Of a stretch of DNA of 64,000 nucleotides, positions 345 to 64,000 are shown piece after piece. Made by a program: the position numbers and the translations under genes. How positions within the stretch are numbered: position 1 is the stretch's first letter; each line of letters begins with the position of its first letter. Source of the DNA: Alphaproteobacteria bacterium (GTDB taxonomy: Bacteria > Pseudomonadota > Alphaproteobacteria > SP197); NCBI GenBank assembly GCA_965228895.1, contig OZ245842.1:2752001-2816000 (forward strand). Reading direction: 5' to 3'. The notes beneath the pieces were generated by a model that did not search any database, had not been told where the DNA came from, and was given only the letters and a program-made list of their open reading frames with translations.

Positions 345-1421
345 CTATTCGAGGTGGGCCGGCAACCGCTCCGCCAGAAAGGCGCCGATCTTGCGCGATC
401 CGCTGGGTGTCGTGTGGATGGCGTCATAGAAATCCTGGGTCTCGAACACCAGCTCGCCGGCCAGGTCGATGCAGATCGCGCCGGCATCGCGGCAGAAAGC
501 GAGCAGGACGTCGTTATAGGCCTGCATCTCCAGAAAGATGCGTCCGGCACCACTGCCCGTCACCTCTTCCAATCCGGCATCGCCAACGCGGACAAGCCCG
601 ACGGGTTGCGTCACGTAGACCGGTGTCGTGCCGTAGTTTCGCGCGACCTGATCCAGCACACGTAAACGCTCGCCATAGGCGTCGAGAGCGTCTTGGTTCA
701 GTGTGATCGCGTCCACCGGTTCATAGGCGATTGTCTCGGGATTGGTGTCGACATCGCCATAGACGACATCGATATCGCGGGCCGCAATCCAGCCTTTCAG
801 ATTCTTGAACGCGCTTGAAAAGATGCTGTGGTTTCGGACGTACGTACTCAGGCGGCGCGACCACGAGGGCGAGGTCAGGCTGTCGGGCTGGGGCACCTGG
901 CCCGGCGCGACGCCGCGGTCGTTGTGGCCGACATAGATCAGTGCGTATTGCGGTGCGAGATCGGGAATGTTCGGGAACCACAACTCGAAACTCTTGATAT
1001 GACCCATGGACGAATGGCCGTCGACGCCGGCATTGGCGACAACATGGTCATAGCCTTGTGCGCGCAGCCCATCCTCCAGCACATCGGGCCAGGTATCGCC
1101 TTCGGTCGCGGCACGGTCGTTGGTCGTGCTGCCGCCCACGGCCAGAATCGTGATGGCAGATGGCTCACCATGGTCGCCGCGCAGGCCGTACGCATCGCGC
1201 TGATAAATCAGCGGGGTGCCCGCCGGGTAGTACGGGCTGTCGGTCTCCACGCGGTTGGCGTTGATGCCGACATTGAGCGAGCCGAACTCCGGCCCGAAGA
1301 TCCAGCTGCCGAGCACCAGCTCGACAGCGATCAGCAGCACCAGCAGTACGAGGAGATTGATACCGAGCGTCTTGCCCCTACGGCGCCAGCGTGATGGCGG
1401 CTCAGTCGAGTGCGAAGGCAT
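345..1421 (-). CDS. Membrane-anchored SGNH/GDSL hydrolase family protein
   Basis: N-terminal TM helix and SGNH blocks GGSTT, NAGVDG, YVGHND, DAIH. Start is uncertain (ATG 1421 or TTG 1433); it overlaps the end of the carbamoyltransferase. Confidence 0.8.
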   Translation of the reverse strand: MPSHSTEPPSRWRRRGKTLGINLLVLLVLLIAVELVLGSWIFGPEFGSLNVGINANRVETDSPYYPAGTPLIYQRDAYGLRGDHGEPSAITILAVGGSTTNDRAATEGDTWPDVLEDGLRAQGYDHVVANAGVDGHSSMGHIKSFELWFPNIPDLAPQYALIYVGHNDRGVAPGQVPQPDSLTSPSWSRRLSTYVRNHSIFSSAFKNLKGWIAARDIDVVYGDVDTNPETIAYEPVDAITLNQDALDAYGERLRVLDQVARNYGTTPVYVTQPVGLVRVGDAGLEEVTGSGAGRIFLEMQAYNDVLLAFCRDAGAICIDLAGELVFETQDFYDAIHTTPSGSRKIGAFLAERLPAHLE

Positions 1422-3237
1422 CCTTGTACTCAAGCTTGAGGGCAGGATCCTGGTCGTCCTTCAGCAGCATGCAGTTGCCGACGATTAACGCATCGAGCTC
1501 GGTGCCCATGAAACAACGGAAGGCGTCTTCCGGTGTGTTGACGATGGGCTCGCCGCGCACGTTGAAGGATGTGTTGACCAGGACCGGGCAGCCGGTGAGC
1601 GCCTTGAACGCCGTCAGCAGCGCGTGATAGCGCGGATTGGTTTCGGCATGCACGGTCTGAACCCGTGCCGAATAGTCGACATGGGTGACGGCCGGGATTT
1701 CCGAACGTTGGACATTCAGCTTGTCGATGCCGAACAGCGCCTGTTCGTCGTCGCTCATGGCGCGCTGGCGTTCACCTTTCACGTCGGCGACGAGCAGCAT
1801 GTAAGGACTGTCGACATCAATATCGAACCAGTCGGCGACATCCTCGCGCAACACCGACGGCGCGAAGGGACGGAACGACTCCCGGTACTTGACCTTCAGG
1901 TTCAGCGTCTTCTGCATGGTCGGCGAGCGGGGATCGCCCAGGATCGAGCGGCCGCCCAAGGCCCGCGGACCAAATTCCATGCGCCCCTGCATCCAGCCGA
2001 CCGCCTTTTCATCGGCCAGCAGGCGCGCGGTCGTTTCAATGACGTCGGCATCGCCAACGACCTGAAACTTGGCGCCCGCCTCGCCCAACCGCGTCTCGAT
2101 TTCGTCTTGCCCGAAGACCGGGCCCAGATAGGAGCCCTTCATGGCGTCGGTGCCGGGCTGGACCTGGCGCGGCTGACCCTTCAGACCGTAGTAGGTCGCA
2201 AGCGCCGCACCCAAAGCACCGCCGGCGTCGCCGGCCGCGGGTTGGGTCCAGATGTTTTCGAACGCACCGTCCTTGAGCACCTTGCCATTGGCAACGCAGT
2301 TGAGCGCCACGCCACCGGCCAGGCACAGGTTCTTCGATCCCGTCTCCTGGGCCAGCGACCGCGTCATGCGCAAGACCACCTCTTCGGTCACCGCCTGGAT
2401 CGAAGCCGCGAGGTCCATGTGGCGCTGGGTCAGCAACTCGTCGTCACCACGGGCCGGCCCGCCGAACAGGTTTGCGAACTTCTCGTTCGTCATGGTCAGC
2501 CCGGTGCAATAGTCGAAATAGGACTGGTCCAACCGGAAGGTGCCGTCCGGCTTGACGTCCATCAGGTTGTCGAGGATCAGGTCCTTGAAGGTCGGGTCGC
2601 CATAGGGCGCCAGGCCCATCACCTTGTATTCGCCGGAGTTGACCTTGAAGCCGGTGTAATAGGTGAATGCCGAATAGAGCAGACCGAGCGAATGCGGGAA
2701 ATGAAGCTCTTTGACGATCTCAAGCTTGTTGCCCTCGCCCATCGAGACCGATGTCGTCGTCCACTCGCCAACACCGTCCATGGTCAGCACGACGGCATCG
2801 TCGAACGGCGATGGAAAGAAGGCTGATGCCGCATGACTTTGATGATGCTCGGCGAACAGCAGTTTCTTCGCCCAATCGAACTCCTCGTTGTAGGCCTTGA
2901 GCTGCTTGCGCAGCAGATCCTTCAGGAAGAGCTTTTCTTTGAGCCAGACCGGGATCGCCATGCGGAATGATTGGAAGCCGCGCGGCGCGAACGCGACATA
3001 GGTCTCCAGCAGGCGCTCGAACTTCAGAAACGGCTTGTCGTAGAACGTGACGTGGTCGACATCGCCTAGGCCGATGCCGGCCTCTTCCAAGCAATACGCG
3101 ATCGCGTTGTCGGGGAACGCCGCATCGTGCTTCTTGCGCGTAAAACGCTCCTCCTGCGCCGCCGCGACGATGCCGGTCTCGTCGACCAGCGCCGCCGCGC
3201 TGTCGTGATAATAGGCCGAGATGCCGAGAATGCGCAT
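1402..3237 (-). CDS. CmcH/NodU/SxtI-family O-carbamoyltransferase
   Basis: MRILGISAYYHDSAA, AQEERFTRKKHD, EHHQSHAASAF, GEYKVMGLAPYG, GGVALNCVANG, KYRESFRPFAP, NTSFNVRGEP. Confidence 0.93.
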   Translation of the reverse strand: MRILGISAYYHDSAAALVDETGIVAAAQEERFTRKKHDAAFPDNAIAYCLEEAGIGLGDVDHVTFYDKPFLKFERLLETYVAFAPRGFQSFRMAIPVWLKEKLFLKDLLRKQLKAYNEEFDWAKKLLFAEHHQSHAASAFFPSPFDDAVVLTMDGVGEWTTTSVSMGEGNKLEIVKELHFPHSLGLLYSAFTYYTGFKVNSGEYKVMGLAPYGDPTFKDLILDNLMDVKPDGTFRLDQSYFDYCTGLTMTNEKFANLFGGPARGDDELLTQRHMDLAASIQAVTEEVVLRMTRSLAQETGSKNLCLAGGVALNCVANGKVLKDGAFENIWTQPAAGDAGGALGAALATYYGLKGQPRQVQPGTDAMKGSYLGPVFGQDEIETRLGEAGAKFQVVGDADVIETTARLLADEKAVGWMQGRMEFGPRALGGRSILGDPRSPTMQKTLNLKVKYRESFRPFAPSVLREDVADWFDIDVDSPYMLLVADVKGERQRAMSDDEQALFGIDKLNVQRSEIPAVTHVDYSARVQTVHAETNPRYHALLTAFKALTGCPVLVNTSFNVRGEPIVNTPEDAFRCFMGTELDALIVGNCMLLKDDQDPALKLEYKDAFALD

Positions 3238-3252
3238 GGGAGCGCGACTGAC

Positions 3253-3669
3253 CTAGAACTGGTTCCGCATGGTGTCCGGGGCCGGGCCCGGCGGCGAGCG
3301 CTCGATCCAATAGCTCGAGGCGTCCTTGTCGAAGCGCAGGCGCAACAGATCCTTGCCCAGCGTGCGCATGACAAGCCCGGTTGGCGTGACCGCAACAAAA
3401 AACATCAGCCCCATGACCACCGGGCTCATGACCTTATGGAGCAGCAGACCGAAGCGAAACCAGAGCTTGTTGAAAGGCCTGAGGCAACGCGGATAAGCGA
3501 ACGAGACGATCACGAACGCCAGCGCGATAGCGAGTGACCACAGACGCACGCCGCCATCGCCCAGAAGCGGAAACAACGCGACAACGATAAAGACCGCAGC
3601 GAACACCAGGCCAAACTGCCGTTCCGAGCCCAGCTTCACATCGCCGGATCGGTTCAGGTCTTCATGCAT
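3253..3669 (-). CDS. SxtJ-family membrane protein
   Basis: 138 aa, hydrophobic, SERQFGLVFA...GKDLLRL...SYWIER...MRNQF pattern; adjacent to the carbamoyltransferase. Confidence 0.85.
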   Translation of the reverse strand: MHEDLNRSGDVKLGSERQFGLVFAAVFIVVALFPLLGDGGVRLWSLAIALAFVIVSFAYPRCLRPFNKLWFRFGLLLHKVMSPVVMGLMFFVAVTPTGLVMRTLGKDLLRLRFDKDASSYWIERSPPGPAPDTMRNQF

Positions 3670-35441: not shown

Positions 35442-35786
35442 ATGCCCGAGCCCCGCACCTATCGCGAGTTTTGGCCGTTCTACGTCGGCGAACACAGCCG
35501 TGAAGCCACACGGCGCCTTCACTTTGTCGGCACCGCCCTTGTTATCGCCATGCCCGTGATCGCTCTGGTGACCTGGAATGGGTGGTGGCTGCTGGCCATG
35601 CCGTTCCTAGGCTATGGCTTCGCGTGGGTCAGCCACTTCTTTATCCAACGCAACAAACCCGCGACTTTCCGTTTTCCGGTGTGGAGCCTGATCGGCGACT
35701 TCCACATGTTCGCCTTGATGTGTCTGGGCCGGATGAACAACGAAGTCGCGCGCTGCGCCCGCCAAGACCGATCCGTCGATGCATGA
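35442..35786 (+). CDS. DUF962 / Mpo1-like protein
   Basis: FWPFYVGEH..TRRLHFVGT, YGFAWVSHFF..NKPATF..WSLIGDF. Confidence 0.85.
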   Translation: MPEPRTYREFWPFYVGEHSREATRRLHFVGTALVIAMPVIALVTWNGWWLLAMPFLGYGFAWVSHFFIQRNKPATFRFPVWSLIGDFHMFALMCLGRMNNEVARCARQDRSVDA

Positions 35787-35853
35787 GAGTTGATCGCACG
35801 CACTGACGCGCCCTATCCTTACGCCGTGATGGCGCGCGGGGGGAGAGTCGGTC

Positions 35854-36498
35854 ATGCTGACGATTGCGGAGGAGATCCTTCTCCTGGTGCTGGATGACGA
35901 GACCGGTACCTTCATAAACGAACCCGATGTTCATGTCGGTTACGCGGTCGCCGGCGCTGTCCTGATGGATCTGGCCCTGGCCAACCGCATCGACGCCGAC
36001 AACGAGAAACTCTTCGTCGCCGACAAGGCACCGACCGGCGACCCCGTGCAGGACTCGGTTCTCGAGCGCCTGGAAGCATCCGGCGAACTGCATGATGCGG
36101 GCTATTGGGTCGGTGAAATCGGTCGCGATTCCCGCGAGTTGCGCGAACGCGTTCTACACCGTCTGGTCGAGGGCGGTATCCTGAAGGAGGTCGACAAGAA
36201 GATCCTGTGGGTCTTCGAGACACGCCGCTATCCCATGGTCGACGGCAAGGAAGAACGCGAGGTCAAACGGCGCATTCTGGATGTCCTGCTTAGCGATTCG
36301 ACACCTGAGCCGCGCGATATCGTGATCATCTGCCTGGCCGATGCCTGCAATCTATTCGACCAGATATTGAGCGAGCGCGAGGTCGAGCATGTCGAACCGC
36401 GCATCGACGAGATCGTCAAGATGGACGTGATCGGGCAAGCGGTCGCCAATACCATCCGGGAAATTCGCGCATCCATCGCCCCGATGATGATGATGTAG
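35854..36498 (+). CDS. GPP34 (GOLPH3/Vps74) family protein
   Basis: MLTIAEEILLLVLDDETG, AGAVLMDLALANRI, LWVFETRRYP. Confidence 0.85.
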   Translation: MLTIAEEILLLVLDDETGTFINEPDVHVGYAVAGAVLMDLALANRIDADNEKLFVADKAPTGDPVQDSVLERLEASGELHDAGYWVGEIGRDSRELRERVLHRLVEGGILKEVDKKILWVFETRRYPMVDGKEEREVKRRILDVLLSDSTPEPRDIVIICLADACNLFDQILSEREVEHVEPRIDEIVKMDVIGQAVANTIREIRASIAPMMMM

Positions 36499-58539: not shown

Positions 58540-59892
58540 TCAGATCAACCCGTCCTCGCGCACGGCCAGAAGCGAATCCTGGAACGCCGTTGCCACCTTA
58601 TCGATCTGCTCAGGCGTATGGGCGGCCGAGGTAAAGAACAGGTGGATGCCCGGCAGGATGACGCCGTTGTTAAGGAGGTGGACGTCGAACTCCTGCTGGG
58701 CCGCGTGGTTCTCGTCGCCGAGGTCGCGTGAGCTTTCGATGCCGCGCTTGAAGTGCATATAGAAGATCGAGCCGGCGTTCATCAGCGTGGCGGCGATCTG
58801 GCGTTCCTCGCAGAACGTGTTGACCGCGGCTGCCAGCCGGTCGCCCTCGCTGTTGAGCGCCGGGAACAACGTCTCCTTGTTCTCCTTCATGTGCGCGATG
58901 GTCGCGACGCCGCCGGCCATGGTCAGCGGGTTGCCGGAGAAGGTGCCGCCCATGAACACACCCTTGGGGTCGCCCCAGGGTCTGCCGAGCAGGTCCATGA
59001 CCTCGGCCCGGCCGGAGAGCGCGCCGACCGGCAGGCCGCCGGCAAGCGCCTTGCCCCAGGTGATGAGATCGCCGGTGACGCCGAAATACTCCATGCCGCC
59101 GCCGAAGCCGAGGCGGAAGCCGGTGACGACCTCGTCGAGCAGCAGCAGGACATCGCTTTCGCGGCAGACCTCGGCCAGCCCTTTCAGCCAAGGCCCGACA
59201 TCATCGCGCGGCACCGTATTCTGCACCGGCTGCACCATGACGAGCGCCAACTCGTCCTTGTGGGCGCGGATCAGCTCGAACGCCTTGGGGTCGGCATAGG
59301 GCAGCATCATCATGGTGTCGTCGCGGATGGTCTCGGGAACGCCGGTGCCCATCAGTTTCGGTCCGGGTTCCGAGCGCGGGCTCTCCGGATCGGCCTTGAC
59401 CAGGGCGTAGTCGTGGGCGCCGTGGTAACAGCCGTCGAACACGGCGACCCGGTTCTTGCCGGAATAGCCGCGCGCGGCACGCATGCCGTACATGGTGGCT
59501 TCGGTGCCGGAATTGCAGAAGATCGTCCGTTCGGCGCCCGGTGCTGCATCGGCAATCAAATGGGCGAGCTCTTCCTGGCGCTCGTTGTGCAGCCCAAAAT
59601 GCCAGCCGCGCGTGAGCTGGTCATGCAACGCGTCCTCGACCACCTTCGGGCGATGGCCGAGCACATGAGGTCCGAACCCCATGGTGAGGTCGATGTATTC
59701 GTTGCCGTCGACATCGGTCATGGTCGCGCCTTCCGACGAGCGGATATAGATCGGCGTCGGCATCTGGAAGGTCGGCACCACCTCGATCGGCAGCACGTCG
59801 GCGCTTTTTTCGTGCACCTCACGGGACTTGGGCGTGCGGTCGGCCAGGGACTGGCGGGCCCGGGCGCCCGCGTTATCGGCAGATACGGTCAT
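58540..59892 (-). CDS. Class-III PLP aminotransferase (glutamate-1-semialdehyde aminomutase-like)
   Basis: DVDGNEYID, NSGTEA, GCYHG, DEVVTGFR, WGKALAGGLP, GTFSGNP; lacks the HemL GGVNSPVR motif. Confidence 0.88.
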   Translation of the reverse strand: MTVSADNAGARARQSLADRTPKSREVHEKSADVLPIEVVPTFQMPTPIYIRSSEGATMTDVDGNEYIDLTMGFGPHVLGHRPKVVEDALHDQLTRGWHFGLHNERQEELAHLIADAAPGAERTIFCNSGTEATMYGMRAARGYSGKNRVAVFDGCYHGAHDYALVKADPESPRSEPGPKLMGTGVPETIRDDTMMMLPYADPKAFELIRAHKDELALVMVQPVQNTVPRDDVGPWLKGLAEVCRESDVLLLLDEVVTGFRLGFGGGMEYFGVTGDLITWGKALAGGLPVGALSGRAEVMDLLGRPWGDPKGVFMGGTFSGNPLTMAGGVATIAHMKENKETLFPALNSEGDRLAAAVNTFCEERQIAATLMNAGSIFYMHFKRGIESSRDLGDENHAAQQEFDVHLLNNGVILPGIHLFFTSAAHTPEQIDKVATAFQDSLLAVREDGLI

Positions 59893-60013: not shown

Positions 60014-60712
60014 ATGCTGCTGACACCGACCGAGATGGAACGGCTGACCATCTTCACCGCCGCCGAACTGGCTCGCCGGCGCCGCGGGCGCGGCCAGAAA
60101 CTGAACCATCCCGAGGCGGTCGCCATTATCGCCGACGAACTGATGGAAGCCGCGCGCGACGGCCACACGCTGGCCGAGGTCATGACGTTGGGTACGACGC
60201 TGTTGACGACCGACGACGTGCTGCCCGGCGTCGCAGGTCTGATGTCGCTCCTGACCCTCGAAGGCCAGTTCCCGGACGGCCCGAAGATGATCACCATCCA
60301 CAACCCCGTGCGGCCAGGCAAAGAGGCAACGAGCGAGGCGACCCAGCCCGGCGAGGTGCTGACCGCCGACGGCGACATCGAACTGAACGCCGGGCGCGAG
60401 CGCGTCACCCTGACCGTGTTGAACACCGGCGACCGGCCGGTGCAAGTCGCCAGCCACTATCATTTCTTTGAGGCGAACAAGGCGCTTGAGTTCGACCGCG
60501 CCGCTGCGTTCGGCAAACGGCTCGACGTCCTGGCCGGCGCCGCCGCGCGCTTCGAGCCCGGCGAATCGAAAGACGTCAACCTGGTCGCCATCGGCGGCAC
60601 CGGCGAGGTCAGCGGGCTGAACAACCTGACTGAAGGACAGATCGCCGATCCCGCCGTCAAGCAGGTGGCGCTCGCGCGCGCCAAGGCACGCGATTATCGG
60701 GGCGCTGAATAA
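60014..60712 (+). CDS. ureAB: Fused urease gamma-beta subunit (divergent)
   Basis: KLNHPEA..EAARDG..FPDG (gamma) fused to [24 protein letters not shown] (beta). Confidence 0.9.
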
Positions 60713-62421
60713 TGGCGACCGTCTCGCGCGATGCTTACGCCGCGGCGTTCGGGCCGACCACCGGCGACCGCGTGCGCCTGGGCGACACCAGCCTTCTGGC
60801 GCGCGTCGAAAAGGACCACGCGGTCTATGGCGAAGAGCTTCTGACCGGGTTGGGCAAGACCCTGCGCGACGGCCTGGGCGTCGATGCCGGCGTCACCACC
60901 GCCGACGGCGCCCTCGACGTGGTCGTGCAGAACGCGCTGATCATCGATCCCGTGCTCGGTATCGTCAAAGCCGATATCGGCATCACCGACGGGCGCATTG
61001 TCGGCATCGGCAAGGCCGGCAACCCTGCCATCATGGCCGGTGTCGACAAGAACCTGATCGTCGGCCCGTCGACCAAACACTTCATGGCCGAAGGCATGAT
61101 CGTGACGCCCGGCGCGATCGACGTGCACGCCCACTACGCGCAACCCGAAGAAGTCTGGCATGCGCTCTCATCAGGCATGACGACCATGATCGGCGGCGGT
61201 TTCCCCGGCTGCTGGTCGGTCGACTCCGGCGGCCATTGGGCGAACTCGCGCATGCTGAAGGCGACCGAAGCCTTTCCCATGAACTTCGGCTTGTTCAGCC
61301 GTGGCAGCGCACACAAACCGGCGGGGATCGCCGAGCAGATCCGCTCCGGCGTCATCGGCGTCAAGATCCACGAAGACATCGGCGCCATGCCGGCGACCAT
61401 CGACTGCTGTCTGACCGTCGCCGACGATCTGGATTTCCAGGTGCAGCTGCACACCGACACCATGAACGAGGCCGGTTTTTTCGAGCGCACCATGGAGGCG
61501 ATCGCCGGGCGCACGATCCACATGTACCACACCGAAGGGGCCGGCGGCGGCCATGCGCCCGACATCATCCGCTGTAACGGCGAGATCAACTGCCTGCCGT
61601 CGTCGACCAATCCGACGAACCCCTTTACGTTGAACGCGCTCGACGAACATCTCGACATGATGATGCTGTGCCACAGCCTGTCGCCGGACGTGCCGGAAGA
61701 TGTCGCGTTTGCCGACAGCCGCCTCAGGCCCCAGTCGATGGCGGCCGAAGACGTGCTGCACGACGTGGGCGCGATCAGCATGTTCGGCTCCGATGCCGAA
61801 GGCATGGGCCGCACCATGGAGGTCGTGACGTCGCTGTGGAAACTGGCGTCGAAGATGCGCGACGAACGCGGGCCGTTGGCCGAGGAACCGTTCGACAACG
61901 CGGACAACGCGCGCATCCTGCGCTACCTCGCCAAGGTCACGATCAATCCGGCGATCACGTTCGGCATCGCCGATTACGTCGGCAGCCTGGAGCCCGGCAA
62001 GATGGCCGACTTCGTCATGTGGCGTCCGGCCTTCTTCGGCATCAAACCGTCACAGGTCGTCAAGGCGGGCATGCAGGTCTGGGGCATCAACGGCGACGCG
62101 GCGGCAGCCTTAAGCGGTCTGGAACCGACGCGGATGCGGCCGAGCTGGGGCGGCGTCGGGACCGCGCCCAACGCGCTGTCGGCCGCCTTCGTTCATCCGT
62201 CCGCGCTCGACGACGACATCGCCGGACGCTTCGACATCGCCAAACCGCTACTGCCGCTTTCCGGCACGCGCAAGCTATCGAAGGAGGACATGGCCCTGAA
62301 CGATGCGCTGCCCGACATCCGCGTCGACAGCCAGACCTTTGACGTGTTCGTCGATGGCGACCTCGCGACAACCGAACCGGCGCGCGAGGTGAAGCTCAAC
62401 CGGCTCTACATGCTGCGCTAG
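60712..62421 (+). CDS. ureC: Urease alpha-subunit homolog (divergent urease-like amidohydrolase)
   Basis: [52 protein letters not shown]. Confidence 0.88.
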
Positions 62422-62989: not shown

Positions 62990-63580
62990 TTAGATAGGCT
63001 TTGTCAGAAGAACCCAGTTTTCCGCATCGTTCTTCCAGCCGTCCTTGACCATCGGGCGTCTGGCGGTTTCCGCATAGCCGTTGGCTTCGTAGAGCCGCCG
63101 CGCACCCTTGTTGGCATCGGTCACGATGATGCTGAGGCCCTTTTTGCCTTCCCTAACGGCAATCTTGTCGGCAAGCGCGAGTAATGCGGAACCATGGCCC
63201 TTGCTCCGGTGCTCTGGATAGGTCGCGAGCACATTCACGTACCAGGTGCCGGGCGCCATGGCTTCGAGTTCCTGGCGCGGCACAACGACGGCAGGCATCG
63301 CGTCATAGTCGAGGGGTGCGGGCTCATCCGCCAACGGATAGCCGATCATGCTCGAGATGACGTCGCCACCGAACTCGACGACGATGGCGTTCTTGTAGGA
63401 AAAGCTACCCTCTTCCCGTCGCGTACGGCGCTGGCCGACATCCCACGGATTCTCACCGGGCTCGGCCATACCTTCCCATAGATGAACCGGCATCCCCTCG
63501 CCGGCATAGTTGATCAGTTGAGCAAGCAGAAAGGCGTCGTCAGGCTGCGCCCGGCGGTAGGGGCGATCGAGATCGATCAT
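62990..63580 (-). CDS. GNAT family N-acetyltransferase
   Basis: YVNVLATYPEHRSKGHGSALL, NKGARRLYEANGY. Confidence 0.88.
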   Translation of the reverse strand: MIDLDRPYRRAQPDDAFLLAQLINYAGEGMPVHLWEGMAEPGENPWDVGQRRTRREEGSFSYKNAIVVEFGGDVISSMIGYPLADEPAPLDYDAMPAVVVPRQELEAMAPGTWYVNVLATYPEHRSKGHGSALLALADKIAVREGKKGLSIIVTDANKGARRLYEANGYAETARRPMVKDGWKNDAENWVLLTKPI

Positions 63581-63731
63581 GCTGCTTCTTCATCCTGTTC
63601 CCTCACCTTGGCCAATCGCACACCGTCCCGGCGCAGCCGCGATCAAGGCTGGCAGGCCGGCGTTTTTGCCGGTTTACTGGTCCCCCCAAAGGACCAAACC
63701 GCGTGAGCCATATGATGTCGGGAGGACGCCA

Positions 63732-64000
63732 ATGCAATCCTACTTAAGAGATCAAATTGACTGGGTACAACCGTTCCCGCCCGAGGAGTACACCGCGCGC
63801 CGCGGCCGGGTGCGCCAGGCGCTCGCAGAGGCCGGGCTCGATGCGATCTATGTGACCAACCCGGCGGACCTTAACTGGCTCACCGGCTACGACATGATCT
63901 GGTTTCACCTGCAGAACCTGACCGGGCTTCTGGTGCGCGCCGACAGCGACGACACCGTCTTTTTCGACGGCGTCGGCCATACCACTATCGTCTCGACCAC
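63732..64000 (+). CDS. M24 family hydrolase (creatinase/ectoine hydrolase/Xaa-Pro peptidase-like), N-terminal part
   Basis: Not in the ORF track. GGAGG SD, then MQSYLRDQIDWVQPFPPEEYTARRGRVRQALAEAGLDAIYVTNPADLNWLTGYD, a creatinase-N-domain pattern; runs off the window. Confidence 0.75.
   Translation, partial: MQSYLRDQIDWVQPFPPEEYTARRGRVRQALAEAGLDAIYVTNPADLNWLTGYDMIWFHLQNLTGLLVRADSDDTVFFDGVGHTTIVST

Follow-up and report, generated by a model that had tools for sequence, protein, structure and literature searches.

A divergent urease homologue with conserved metal ligands and a predicted rebuilt second shell in marine and aquatic Alphaproteobacteria

Among the ureases described so far, Klebsiella aerogenes UreABC (2KAU, 1EJW) and the S. 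pasteurii enzyme set the canonical pattern, while Helicobacter pylori UreA/UreB and H. mustelae UreA2/UreB2 are encoded by two genes, with the gamma and beta subunits fused, and H. mustelae UreA2B2 is not known to have adjacent accessory genes. The subject of this work is a two-gene urease homologue, ureAB and ureC, in a 64,000-nucleotide stretch of an alphaproteobacterial genome (contig OZ245842.1, positions 2,752,001 to 2,816,000; "the window" below is this whole stretch). With the K. aerogenes and S. pasteurii enzymes it shares the predicted fold (template modelling score, TM, 0.96), about 50% identity, the metal ligands, the catalytic residues and most of the flap; it differs in that its gamma and beta subunits are fused, its Ala167 loop (PGCW) is four residues shorter, the Trp after HED is Ile and the accessory genes are unlinked. 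It has the two-gene, fused gamma/beta layout of the Helicobacter enzymes, whose alpha chains are 46–49% identical to the window UreC and keep the long canonical Ala167 loop, HEDWG, CHHL and SDSQAMGR. In the tree it falls into one lineage with fused "short-loop" ureases of Hyphomicrobiales and their relatives (clade A; NF009671/NF009686; Bradyrhizobium, Ancylobacter, Chelatococcus and Amorphus among them), which have the xVDSGG loop, GMGR and the gamma/beta fusion in common with it at 62–66% identity. Clade A retains HEDWG, CHHL and SDSQ, whereas the group to which the window UreC belongs, which we call D-type, has 13 invariant changes of its own.

The case matters since ureC is a standard marker of urea use in nitrogen-cycle surveys. 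The short-loop fused lineage passes the curated urease models and occurs in many Alphaproteobacteria, some genomes having as many as four copies. None of its subclades is more remodelled than D-type, which in one marine and aquatic family is often the sole urease homologue. We favour, with a probability of roughly 0.6, the explanation that D-type is a nickel urease of a divergent subclade, matured by an unlinked ureEFGD cluster and disposing of endogenous urea. The explanation starts from the sequence, the fold model, the conservation and the phyletic pattern described below, and from these we infer the metal, the maturation and the substrate.

The window pair and its active site

The first gene, ureAB (60014..60712, + strand), encodes 232 residues, with urease gamma in residues 1–100 and beta in residues 112–210; it matches NF009671, "bifunctional urease subunit gamma/beta", with 332.9 bits against a cut-off of 243, as well as PF00547 and PF00699, and stays below the cut-off of the Helicobacter-type UreA model NF010592 (254 bits against 353). 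Directly 3' of it on the same strand, ureC (60712..62421) encodes a urease alpha subunit homologue of 569 residues with the N-terminal beta domain PF00449 (157 bits) and the amidohydrolase TIM barrel PF01979 (209 bits), so that the gamma and beta subunits are encoded together with alpha. Both reading frames are open, a Shine–Dalgarno-like GAGGGGA precedes the ATG of ureAB, and the stop of ureAB and the start of ureC share one nucleotide (TAATG), an overlap that suggests translational coupling. UreC exceeds the curated family cut-offs of TIGR01792 (736.7 bits against 680) and NF009686 (779.2 against 354), which explains the public-record name "urease subunit alpha" of D-type proteins, and falls below three equivalog models for specific canonical subtypes (NF009685, 704.7/907; NF009834, 668/1001; NF010591, 662/1083). 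No ureD, ureE, ureF or ureG was found among the genes adjoining the pair.

An AlphaFold2 (AF2) model of UreC, built from a 65-sequence alignment, reached a mean predicted local distance difference test score (pLDDT) of 90.7 and a predicted TM score of 0.94. It superposes on the ureases of K. aerogenes, H. pylori, S. pasteurii and jack bean with TM scores of 0.95–0.96 and root-mean-square deviations of 1.6–1.7 Å (TM 0.96 and 1.6 Å for 2kau_C); the modelled fold is that of a urease alpha subunit.

The first-pass annotation of the window had claimed that the metal ligands and catalytic residues are kept while the segments lining the pocket are changed, and when the protein is aligned by HMMER with UreC of K. 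aerogenes (1ejw_C; E 6.6e-182), both claims are confirmed. Judged by this alignment, all six dinickel ligands of the K. aerogenes urease (KAU: His134, His136, carbamylated Lys217, His246, His272 and Asp360) have their match. H139 and H141 (KAU H134 and H136) lie in DVHAH (61120..61134, + strand), a motif invariant in 65/65 sequences; the carbamylated-lysine position K218 stands with H220 and D222 (K217, H219 and D221) in KIHEDIG (61363..61383, + strand), in which the canonical Trp is Ile; and LHTDT (H247) and YHTEG (H273) are unaltered. The flap Cys320–His321 (C319, H320) is kept in CHSL (61669..61680, + strand), R337 aligns to KAU R336, and most of the flap sequence is unchanged. Ten residues, H139, H141, K218, H220, H247, H273, H321, R337, D361 and M365, are invariant in all 65 aligned sequences. 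The second His of the flap motif is replaced, by S, T, M, K, G or E depending on the sequence, and because the position varies inside the D-type clade it is not a specificity determinant.

What has changed are the two segments that bind urea in canonical enzymes, GTxATT with Ala167 and SDSQAMGR with Ala363. In place of the former stands a shortened loop on the + strand with the clade-specific residues P165, G166, C167 and W168, for which the first-pass coordinates, 61192–61227, were exact; the latter reads SDAEGMGR (61789..61812, + strand), with the ligand D361 kept and S361A, Q362E (the clade-specific E363 of the window protein) and Ala363 to Gly as replacements. HEDWG has become HEDIG, FGGGK TGLGK, and NASIPTPQP AAALSGLEP, while 12 canonical UreC genes from public genomes keep the canonical motifs in the same comparison. 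These altered segments lower the case for a canonical urease, not that for a protein that works like a urease, and the function may survive the change.

How much these changes should matter depends on what the canonical segments do. In urea-bound S. pasteurii urease, His222 holds the urea oxygen, the backbone carbonyls of Ala170 and Ala366 hold the Ni(2)-bound nitrogen, those of Gly280 and Ala366 hold the distal nitrogen, and the flap Cys322/His323 is closed (PMC7433671). Ala170, Ala366 and Gly280 are the positions of Ala167, Ala363 and Gly277 in K. aerogenes. Because the contacts at the two Ala positions are backbone carbonyls, a replacement of the side chain alone spares them, and Ala363 to Gly need not abolish them. 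The deletion acts on the backbone itself: with four residues gone, the Ala167 segment must be reshaped, and the lost carbonyl would have to be replaced, probably by that of W168 or S169. From clade to clade, the position behind HED holds ever smaller residues (W, Y/F, I/L) and the loop position ever larger ones (V, F, W); this pattern of size compensation follows the clades and is therefore not independent evidence. Taken together, the alignments indicate that the rebuilt second shell is a concerted, conserved remodelling.

The D-type clade and the constraint upon it

The remodelling is not peculiar to the window. Among the best 120 matches in a protein collection clustered at 90% identity, D-type comprises 46 full-length clusters (at least 540 residues and at least 67.5% identity) with the motifs GGG[FYW][PA]G[CA]W..DSGG.WAN, KIHED[IL]G, M.CH.L, [SA]D[AS]EGMGR and TG[LV]GK. 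The identities of these 120 are graded from 96% to 62%, and the proteins are recorded as "urease subunit alpha" from Dongiaceae, Rhodospirillaceae and further metagenome-assembled genomes (MAGs) of Alphaproteobacteria; the D-type hosts are marine and aquatic Alphaproteobacteria. The changed motifs also occur in 35 of 36 related loci (among which L008 and L111, and L020 and L094, are the same contigs), and their recurrence across these loci and the 46 clusters makes them more than chance. A library of representatives at 50% identity, whose best match is 53% identical, lumps all ureases and is too coarse for such a comparison.

A tree was built from 70 chosen rows (IQ-TREE quick search, LG+G4): the two UreC paralogues of the source genome, one of them that of the window, 38 proteins from the library searches, and a choice of loci, namely 12 of the 14 D-type, 10 of the 54 clade A and 8 of the 12 canonical ones. 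It separates canonical ureases from a short-loop superclade, in which D-type is nested. D-type unites 19 rows with an SH-aLRT support of 100; its sister is a pair with intermediate motifs, and the superclade holds further groups, among them clade A of the Hyphomicrobiales, with GGSLGPITVGIDSGG, HEDWG and CHHL, and the group of the source genome's second paralogue, with GGGHGILFGVDSGG, HEDYG and VHHL. From the nesting it follows that a large lineage inherited the short loop and GMGR from its ancestor, and that D-type has added changes of its own. A clade sharing the substitutions had been predicted in the first-pass annotation and is recovered; the long branch predicted along with it is not, the D-type stem measuring 0.14 changes per column within a broad short-loop radiation and the end branch of the window sequence 0.017.

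Position by position, 51 D-type sequences were compared with 72 other short-loop and 14 canonical ones, and residues present in at least 90% of D-type and nearly absent elsewhere were taken as clade-specific. They are 13 in number: K122, Y142, Q144, E147, P165, G166, C167, W168, N178, M251, L338, M343 and E363.

The possibility that D-type is a catalytically dead, decaying or non-enzymatic paralogue can be weighed at this point. One D-type ureC, in a low-coverage Dongiaceae MAG (L010, 4107–5813), is split into two open reading frames of 287 and 254 residues, by a frameshift or an assembly error, and counts in favour of such decay. The dN/dS ratios of ureC against orthologues of 96%, 90% and 89% identity are 0.054, 0.079 and 0.087; 569-residue frames are intact across 66–96% identity, the ligands are invariant, and the motif-verified gene is present in 27 of the 33 genomes sampled from the source family. 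Purifying selection is strong and the pocket changes are not drift; the window gene is real, intact and under strong constraint. We thus regard a dead enzyme as very improbable, and the first-pass provision for an inactive, decaying gene finds nothing in the low dN/dS and the 65/65 ligands to sustain it.

As a separate observation, ten full-length urease-alpha-like proteins among the matches (P0015, P0029, P0031, P0036, P0037, P0045, P0054, P0072, P0082 and P0106) are without the HxH, carbamylated-lysine or SD ligand motifs, and may, to go by their motifs, be non-catalytic or repurposed "pseudo-ureases."

Maturation genes and the probable supply of urea

The source genome is a single contig (C1) of 5.53 Mb. 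Its two strong UreC homologues both belong to fused-type ureases, and no canonical UreC or canonical three-subunit urease was found. The second pair (C1:3873339-3875759, with ureC at C1:3873339-3875048, in the stretch C1:3871493-3875759) carries the GGGHGILFGVDSGG and HEDYG motifs of its group and a flap Cys replaced by Val, and is 64% identical to the window UreC; it has its own ureAB 5' and, on the same strand, a lone gene for a family-5 (NikA/Opp-like) substrate-binding protein after it. The accessory genes ureE-ureF-ureG-ureD are contiguous, have no structural genes beside them and lie 1.18 Mb from the window pair (C1:3989974-3992591), with an arginase-family gene 2 kb away. UreG (TIGR00101, 249 bits against a cut-off of 204), UreE (NF009752, 180 against 162) and UreF (PF01730, 112 bits) were recognised by profiles, UreD solely by its similarity to the UreD of two related loci (L075 and L090). 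This single cluster must serve two unlinked structural pairs.

An arrangement of this kind is also what one would expect of a urease that uses another metal or dispenses with UreDEFG, like the iron-containing H. mustelae UreA2B2, and that serves as a nickel-sparing isozyme beside the second paralogue. The two-gene unit without adjacent accessory genes, in the window and at most loci, the one accessory set for two structural pairs and the remodelled second shell around the ligands would all suit this idea. The comparison among relatives argues against it. In the family sample of 33 genomes, which includes the source genome, motif-verified D-type occurs in 27, with one further case in two contig-end pieces and one genome with a sister type; in six of them (G001, G005, which equals G025, G008, G015, G019 and G030) D-type is the only strong UreC, and UreF is kept in all six. 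G001 has ureE-ureF-ureG-ureD directly 5' of D-type ureAB-ureC, contiguous and on one strand (L075), as the only UreC of the genome. In G013, the sister type (L088; 70% identity, motifs PGAF and SDSQ, left out of the D-type counts) stands between ureE-ureF and ureG-ureD. UreG, UreF and UreD of the source genome are 81%, 65% and 49% identical to those of the D-type-only genome G019, and the alpha chain used for comparison with the H. mustelae iron urease (3qga_C), at 46% identity and rank 20, is no closer to the window UreC than nickel ureases are. On the strength of this co-retention and linkage, D-type would depend on the nickel-insertion machinery, and we judge another metal or independence of UreDEFG to be improbable.

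A nickel urease needs a source of urea, and here the genomes are unusually well provided. The arginase family, formiminoglutamase excepted, releases urea from guanidino compounds; above the Pfam cut-off, the source genome has 22 matches to it, an unusually large set (e.g., C1:1732396-1733217, C1:2860742-2861596 and C1:3994623-3995456), and four D-type-only genomes (G001, G008, G019 and G030) have 10–16, the range being 7–16 with the sister-type genome G013 included. Because of these many genes, D-type organisms should make much urea internally. Searches for other ways of degrading it gave no urea carboxylase above the cut-off in five of five genomes, two of the six D-type-only ones among them, and no allophanate hydrolase above the cut-off in five of five other genomes, which included the remaining four. 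Where D-type is the sole UreC, no candidate for using this urea was found other than the D-type enzyme.

The course of events under the favoured explanation would be as follows. UreAB and UreC would assemble as in other ureases, and the ureE-F-G-D cluster 1.18 Mb away would install a dinickel centre with a carbamylated lysine, as the co-occurrence suggests. The enzyme would then split urea into ammonia and carbamate by means of the unchanged set of H220, D222, flap C320/H321, R337 and a bridging hydroxide, and its main physiological substrate would be urea freed in the cell from guanidino compounds by arginase-family ureohydrolases. The second-shell changes, among them the PGCW loop, Trp to Ile/Leu after HED and Gln to Glu by D361, would more likely tune affinity, flap dynamics or packing than alter the reaction. 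If D-type is a true urease, the highly conserved Ala167 loop, Trp222 and Gln362 are dispensable, and urease would be linked here to the internal recycling of guanidino-derived urea rather than to urea uptake.

A possible other substrate and the evidence of the neighbourhoods

The first-pass annotation had gone further and proposed that the enzyme hydrolyses something other than urea. In the form that we consider, D-type is a neofunctionalised nickel amidohydrolase acting on a urea analogue of guanidino catabolism, such as an N-carbamoyl or ureido acid or amine, a substituted urea or guanidine, and wrongly counted as urease. Several results point in this direction or weigh against the favoured explanation. 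The canonical GGGTGPAAGTHATT has given way to a 12-letter loop in which Ala167 has no aligned residue and which is rebuilt with Cys-Trp. Nine of the 13 clade-specific positions lie within five residues in sequence of 15 active-site residues, a zone of 104 of the 569 positions (hypergeometric p 6e-5; with the loop counted once, six of ten and p 0.004), sequence proximity being a proxy only for distance in space; the clade-specific changes alter the charge at three positions, E122 having become K and a Q having become E at both 147 and 363, the last an acidic residue beside the ligand D361. Their clustering looks like a directed remodelling of the site. Confidence in the AF2 model is lowest just at the active-site loops, with pLDDT below 50 at residues 277–280 and means of 69 at 361–370 and 83 at 161–170. 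Many genomes with D-type have other UreC types too, the source genome and many relatives keeping a second fused paralogue at 61–66% identity. D-type is often the only UreC, whereas all five cultured Hyphomicrobiales searched that have a short-loop UreC of clade A combine one or more such copies with a canonical-like one, Chelatococcus reniformis (L070) having four strong UreC homologues. Such coexistence fits functional divergence among the paralogues. UrtA stayed below the cut-off in five of five genomes searched and no canonical urea importer was found in them. At 24 of the 36 loci (23 distinct), the gene after D-type ureC codes for an MFS transporter, which is not a known type of urea transporter. 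Finally, the open-access full texts and preprints searched held no measured activity for D-type or the short-loop lineage, PMC2680597 mentioning a "urease-like operon" in a table only and PMC6209633 dealing with a canonical three-subunit cluster.

The neighbours add to the appeal of an analogue. Besides the MFS transporter, the genes recurring at the 36 loci in varying arrangements, counted as clusters of called genes, code for an ADP-forming acyl-CoA ligase (18/36), an enoyl-CoA hydratase (20/36; closest to crotonobetainyl-CoA hydratase, below the cut-off), a thiamine pyrophosphate (TPP) enzyme (10/36) that passes NF005712, "5-guanidino-2-oxopentanoate decarboxylase," with 546 bits against 500, a glutamate-1-semialdehyde (GSA) aminomutase-like aminotransferase and a DDAH-like enzyme (4/36). 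Enzymes of the DDAH family turn a guanidino group into a ureido group. In a sister genus, D-type genes stand beside guanidino-compound catabolism genes, the TPP enzyme and the DDAH-like gene among them. Most loci come from one genus, and for that reason the counts are not independent.

In the source genome, a candidate guanidino-compound catabolic island of 30 kb (L112, L113; C1:1723000-1753000) lies 1 Mb from the window urease genes. Gathered in it are the orthologues of the MFS transporter, the ADP-forming acyl-CoA ligase, the enoyl-CoA hydratase (with three hydratase genes in all), the TPP enzyme and the DDAH-like protein found at the D-type loci, and that of a TauD dioxygenase; an arginase-family gene, an Amidohydro_3 gene and genes for an ABC importer and a PuuE-like deacetylase accompany them. 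In a sister genus, the D-type urease genes lie within the corresponding cluster. Elsewhere, D-type genes sit between mutL and rsmD, in Dongiaceae MAGs, or adjoin genes that resemble sarcosine/dimethylglycine dehydrogenases. The neighbourhoods differ between genera, and the idea of one conserved operon partner is rejected on that account.

The association with guanidino catabolism is what one would see if a urease cleared away the urea formed at its end, and also if the enzyme acted on a ureido intermediate. Against the analogue stand several findings: no catalytic side chain has changed and the flap is largely intact, the six genomes with D-type as their only UreC keep UreF, four of these have 10–16 arginase-family genes and the searches found no alternative urea degrader above the cut-off, and the gene neighbourhood is not conserved, D-type standing by mutL/rsmD in one place, behind ureEFGD in L075 in another and 1 Mb from the guanidino cluster in the source genome. 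Of the first-pass proposal, then, the clade-wide, conserved remodelling of the pocket holds, while the change of substrate runs against the retained UreF, the L075 linkage, the arginase-family genes and the lack of a substitute for urea degradation among those searched for. We consider a neofunctionalised amidohydrolase less likely than a urease, though it keeps a fair chance. Were it true, a share of environmental "ureC" reads would be misassigned and a new nickel amidohydrolase activity would be waiting to be discovered. A bolder version, which we put forward as a speculation and hold to be doubtful, has D-type as a nickel hydrolase tuned to a urea analogue of guanidino breakdown, either a ureido acid or N-carbamoyl amine derived from the DDAH-like step or guanidine, and the short-loop fused ureases as several specificities lumped under the name of urease.

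Within the window, the gene next to ureAB is a divergent, GSA-aminomutase-like class-III aminotransferase on the opposite strand (58540..59892, - strand; PF00202, 182.5 bits; NF000818, 318 against a cut-off of 398). In the PDB it most resembles GSA aminomutases and beta-amino-acid transaminases, which give no clue to its substrate; orthologues occur in 10 of the 36 loci (8 distinct, the window included), and a functional link to the D-type urease is conceivable from this recurrence. On the other side, an M24 (Creatinase_N) hydrolase gene begins at 63579 and runs off the window (63579..64000, + strand); it encodes 452 residues in the genome, is found in 5 of the 36 loci and weakly resembles ectoine hydrolase (163 bits against a cut-off of 575). 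The other flanks are genes for RecQ and an autotransporter, and, downstream, a DUF6790 gene and a GNAT gene.

Two further loci of the window are recorded for their own sake. A NodU/CmcH-type carbamoyltransferase gene (611 residues) lies at 1402–3669 (- strand) with genes for a small SxtJ-family protein and a GDSL lipase adjoining, beside lptF-lptG-lptD. At 35442–36498 (+ strand), an Mpo1-like gene is followed by one that matches GPP34 (Golgi phosphoprotein 3) with 178.6 bits; proteins of this family are known mainly from eukaryotes.

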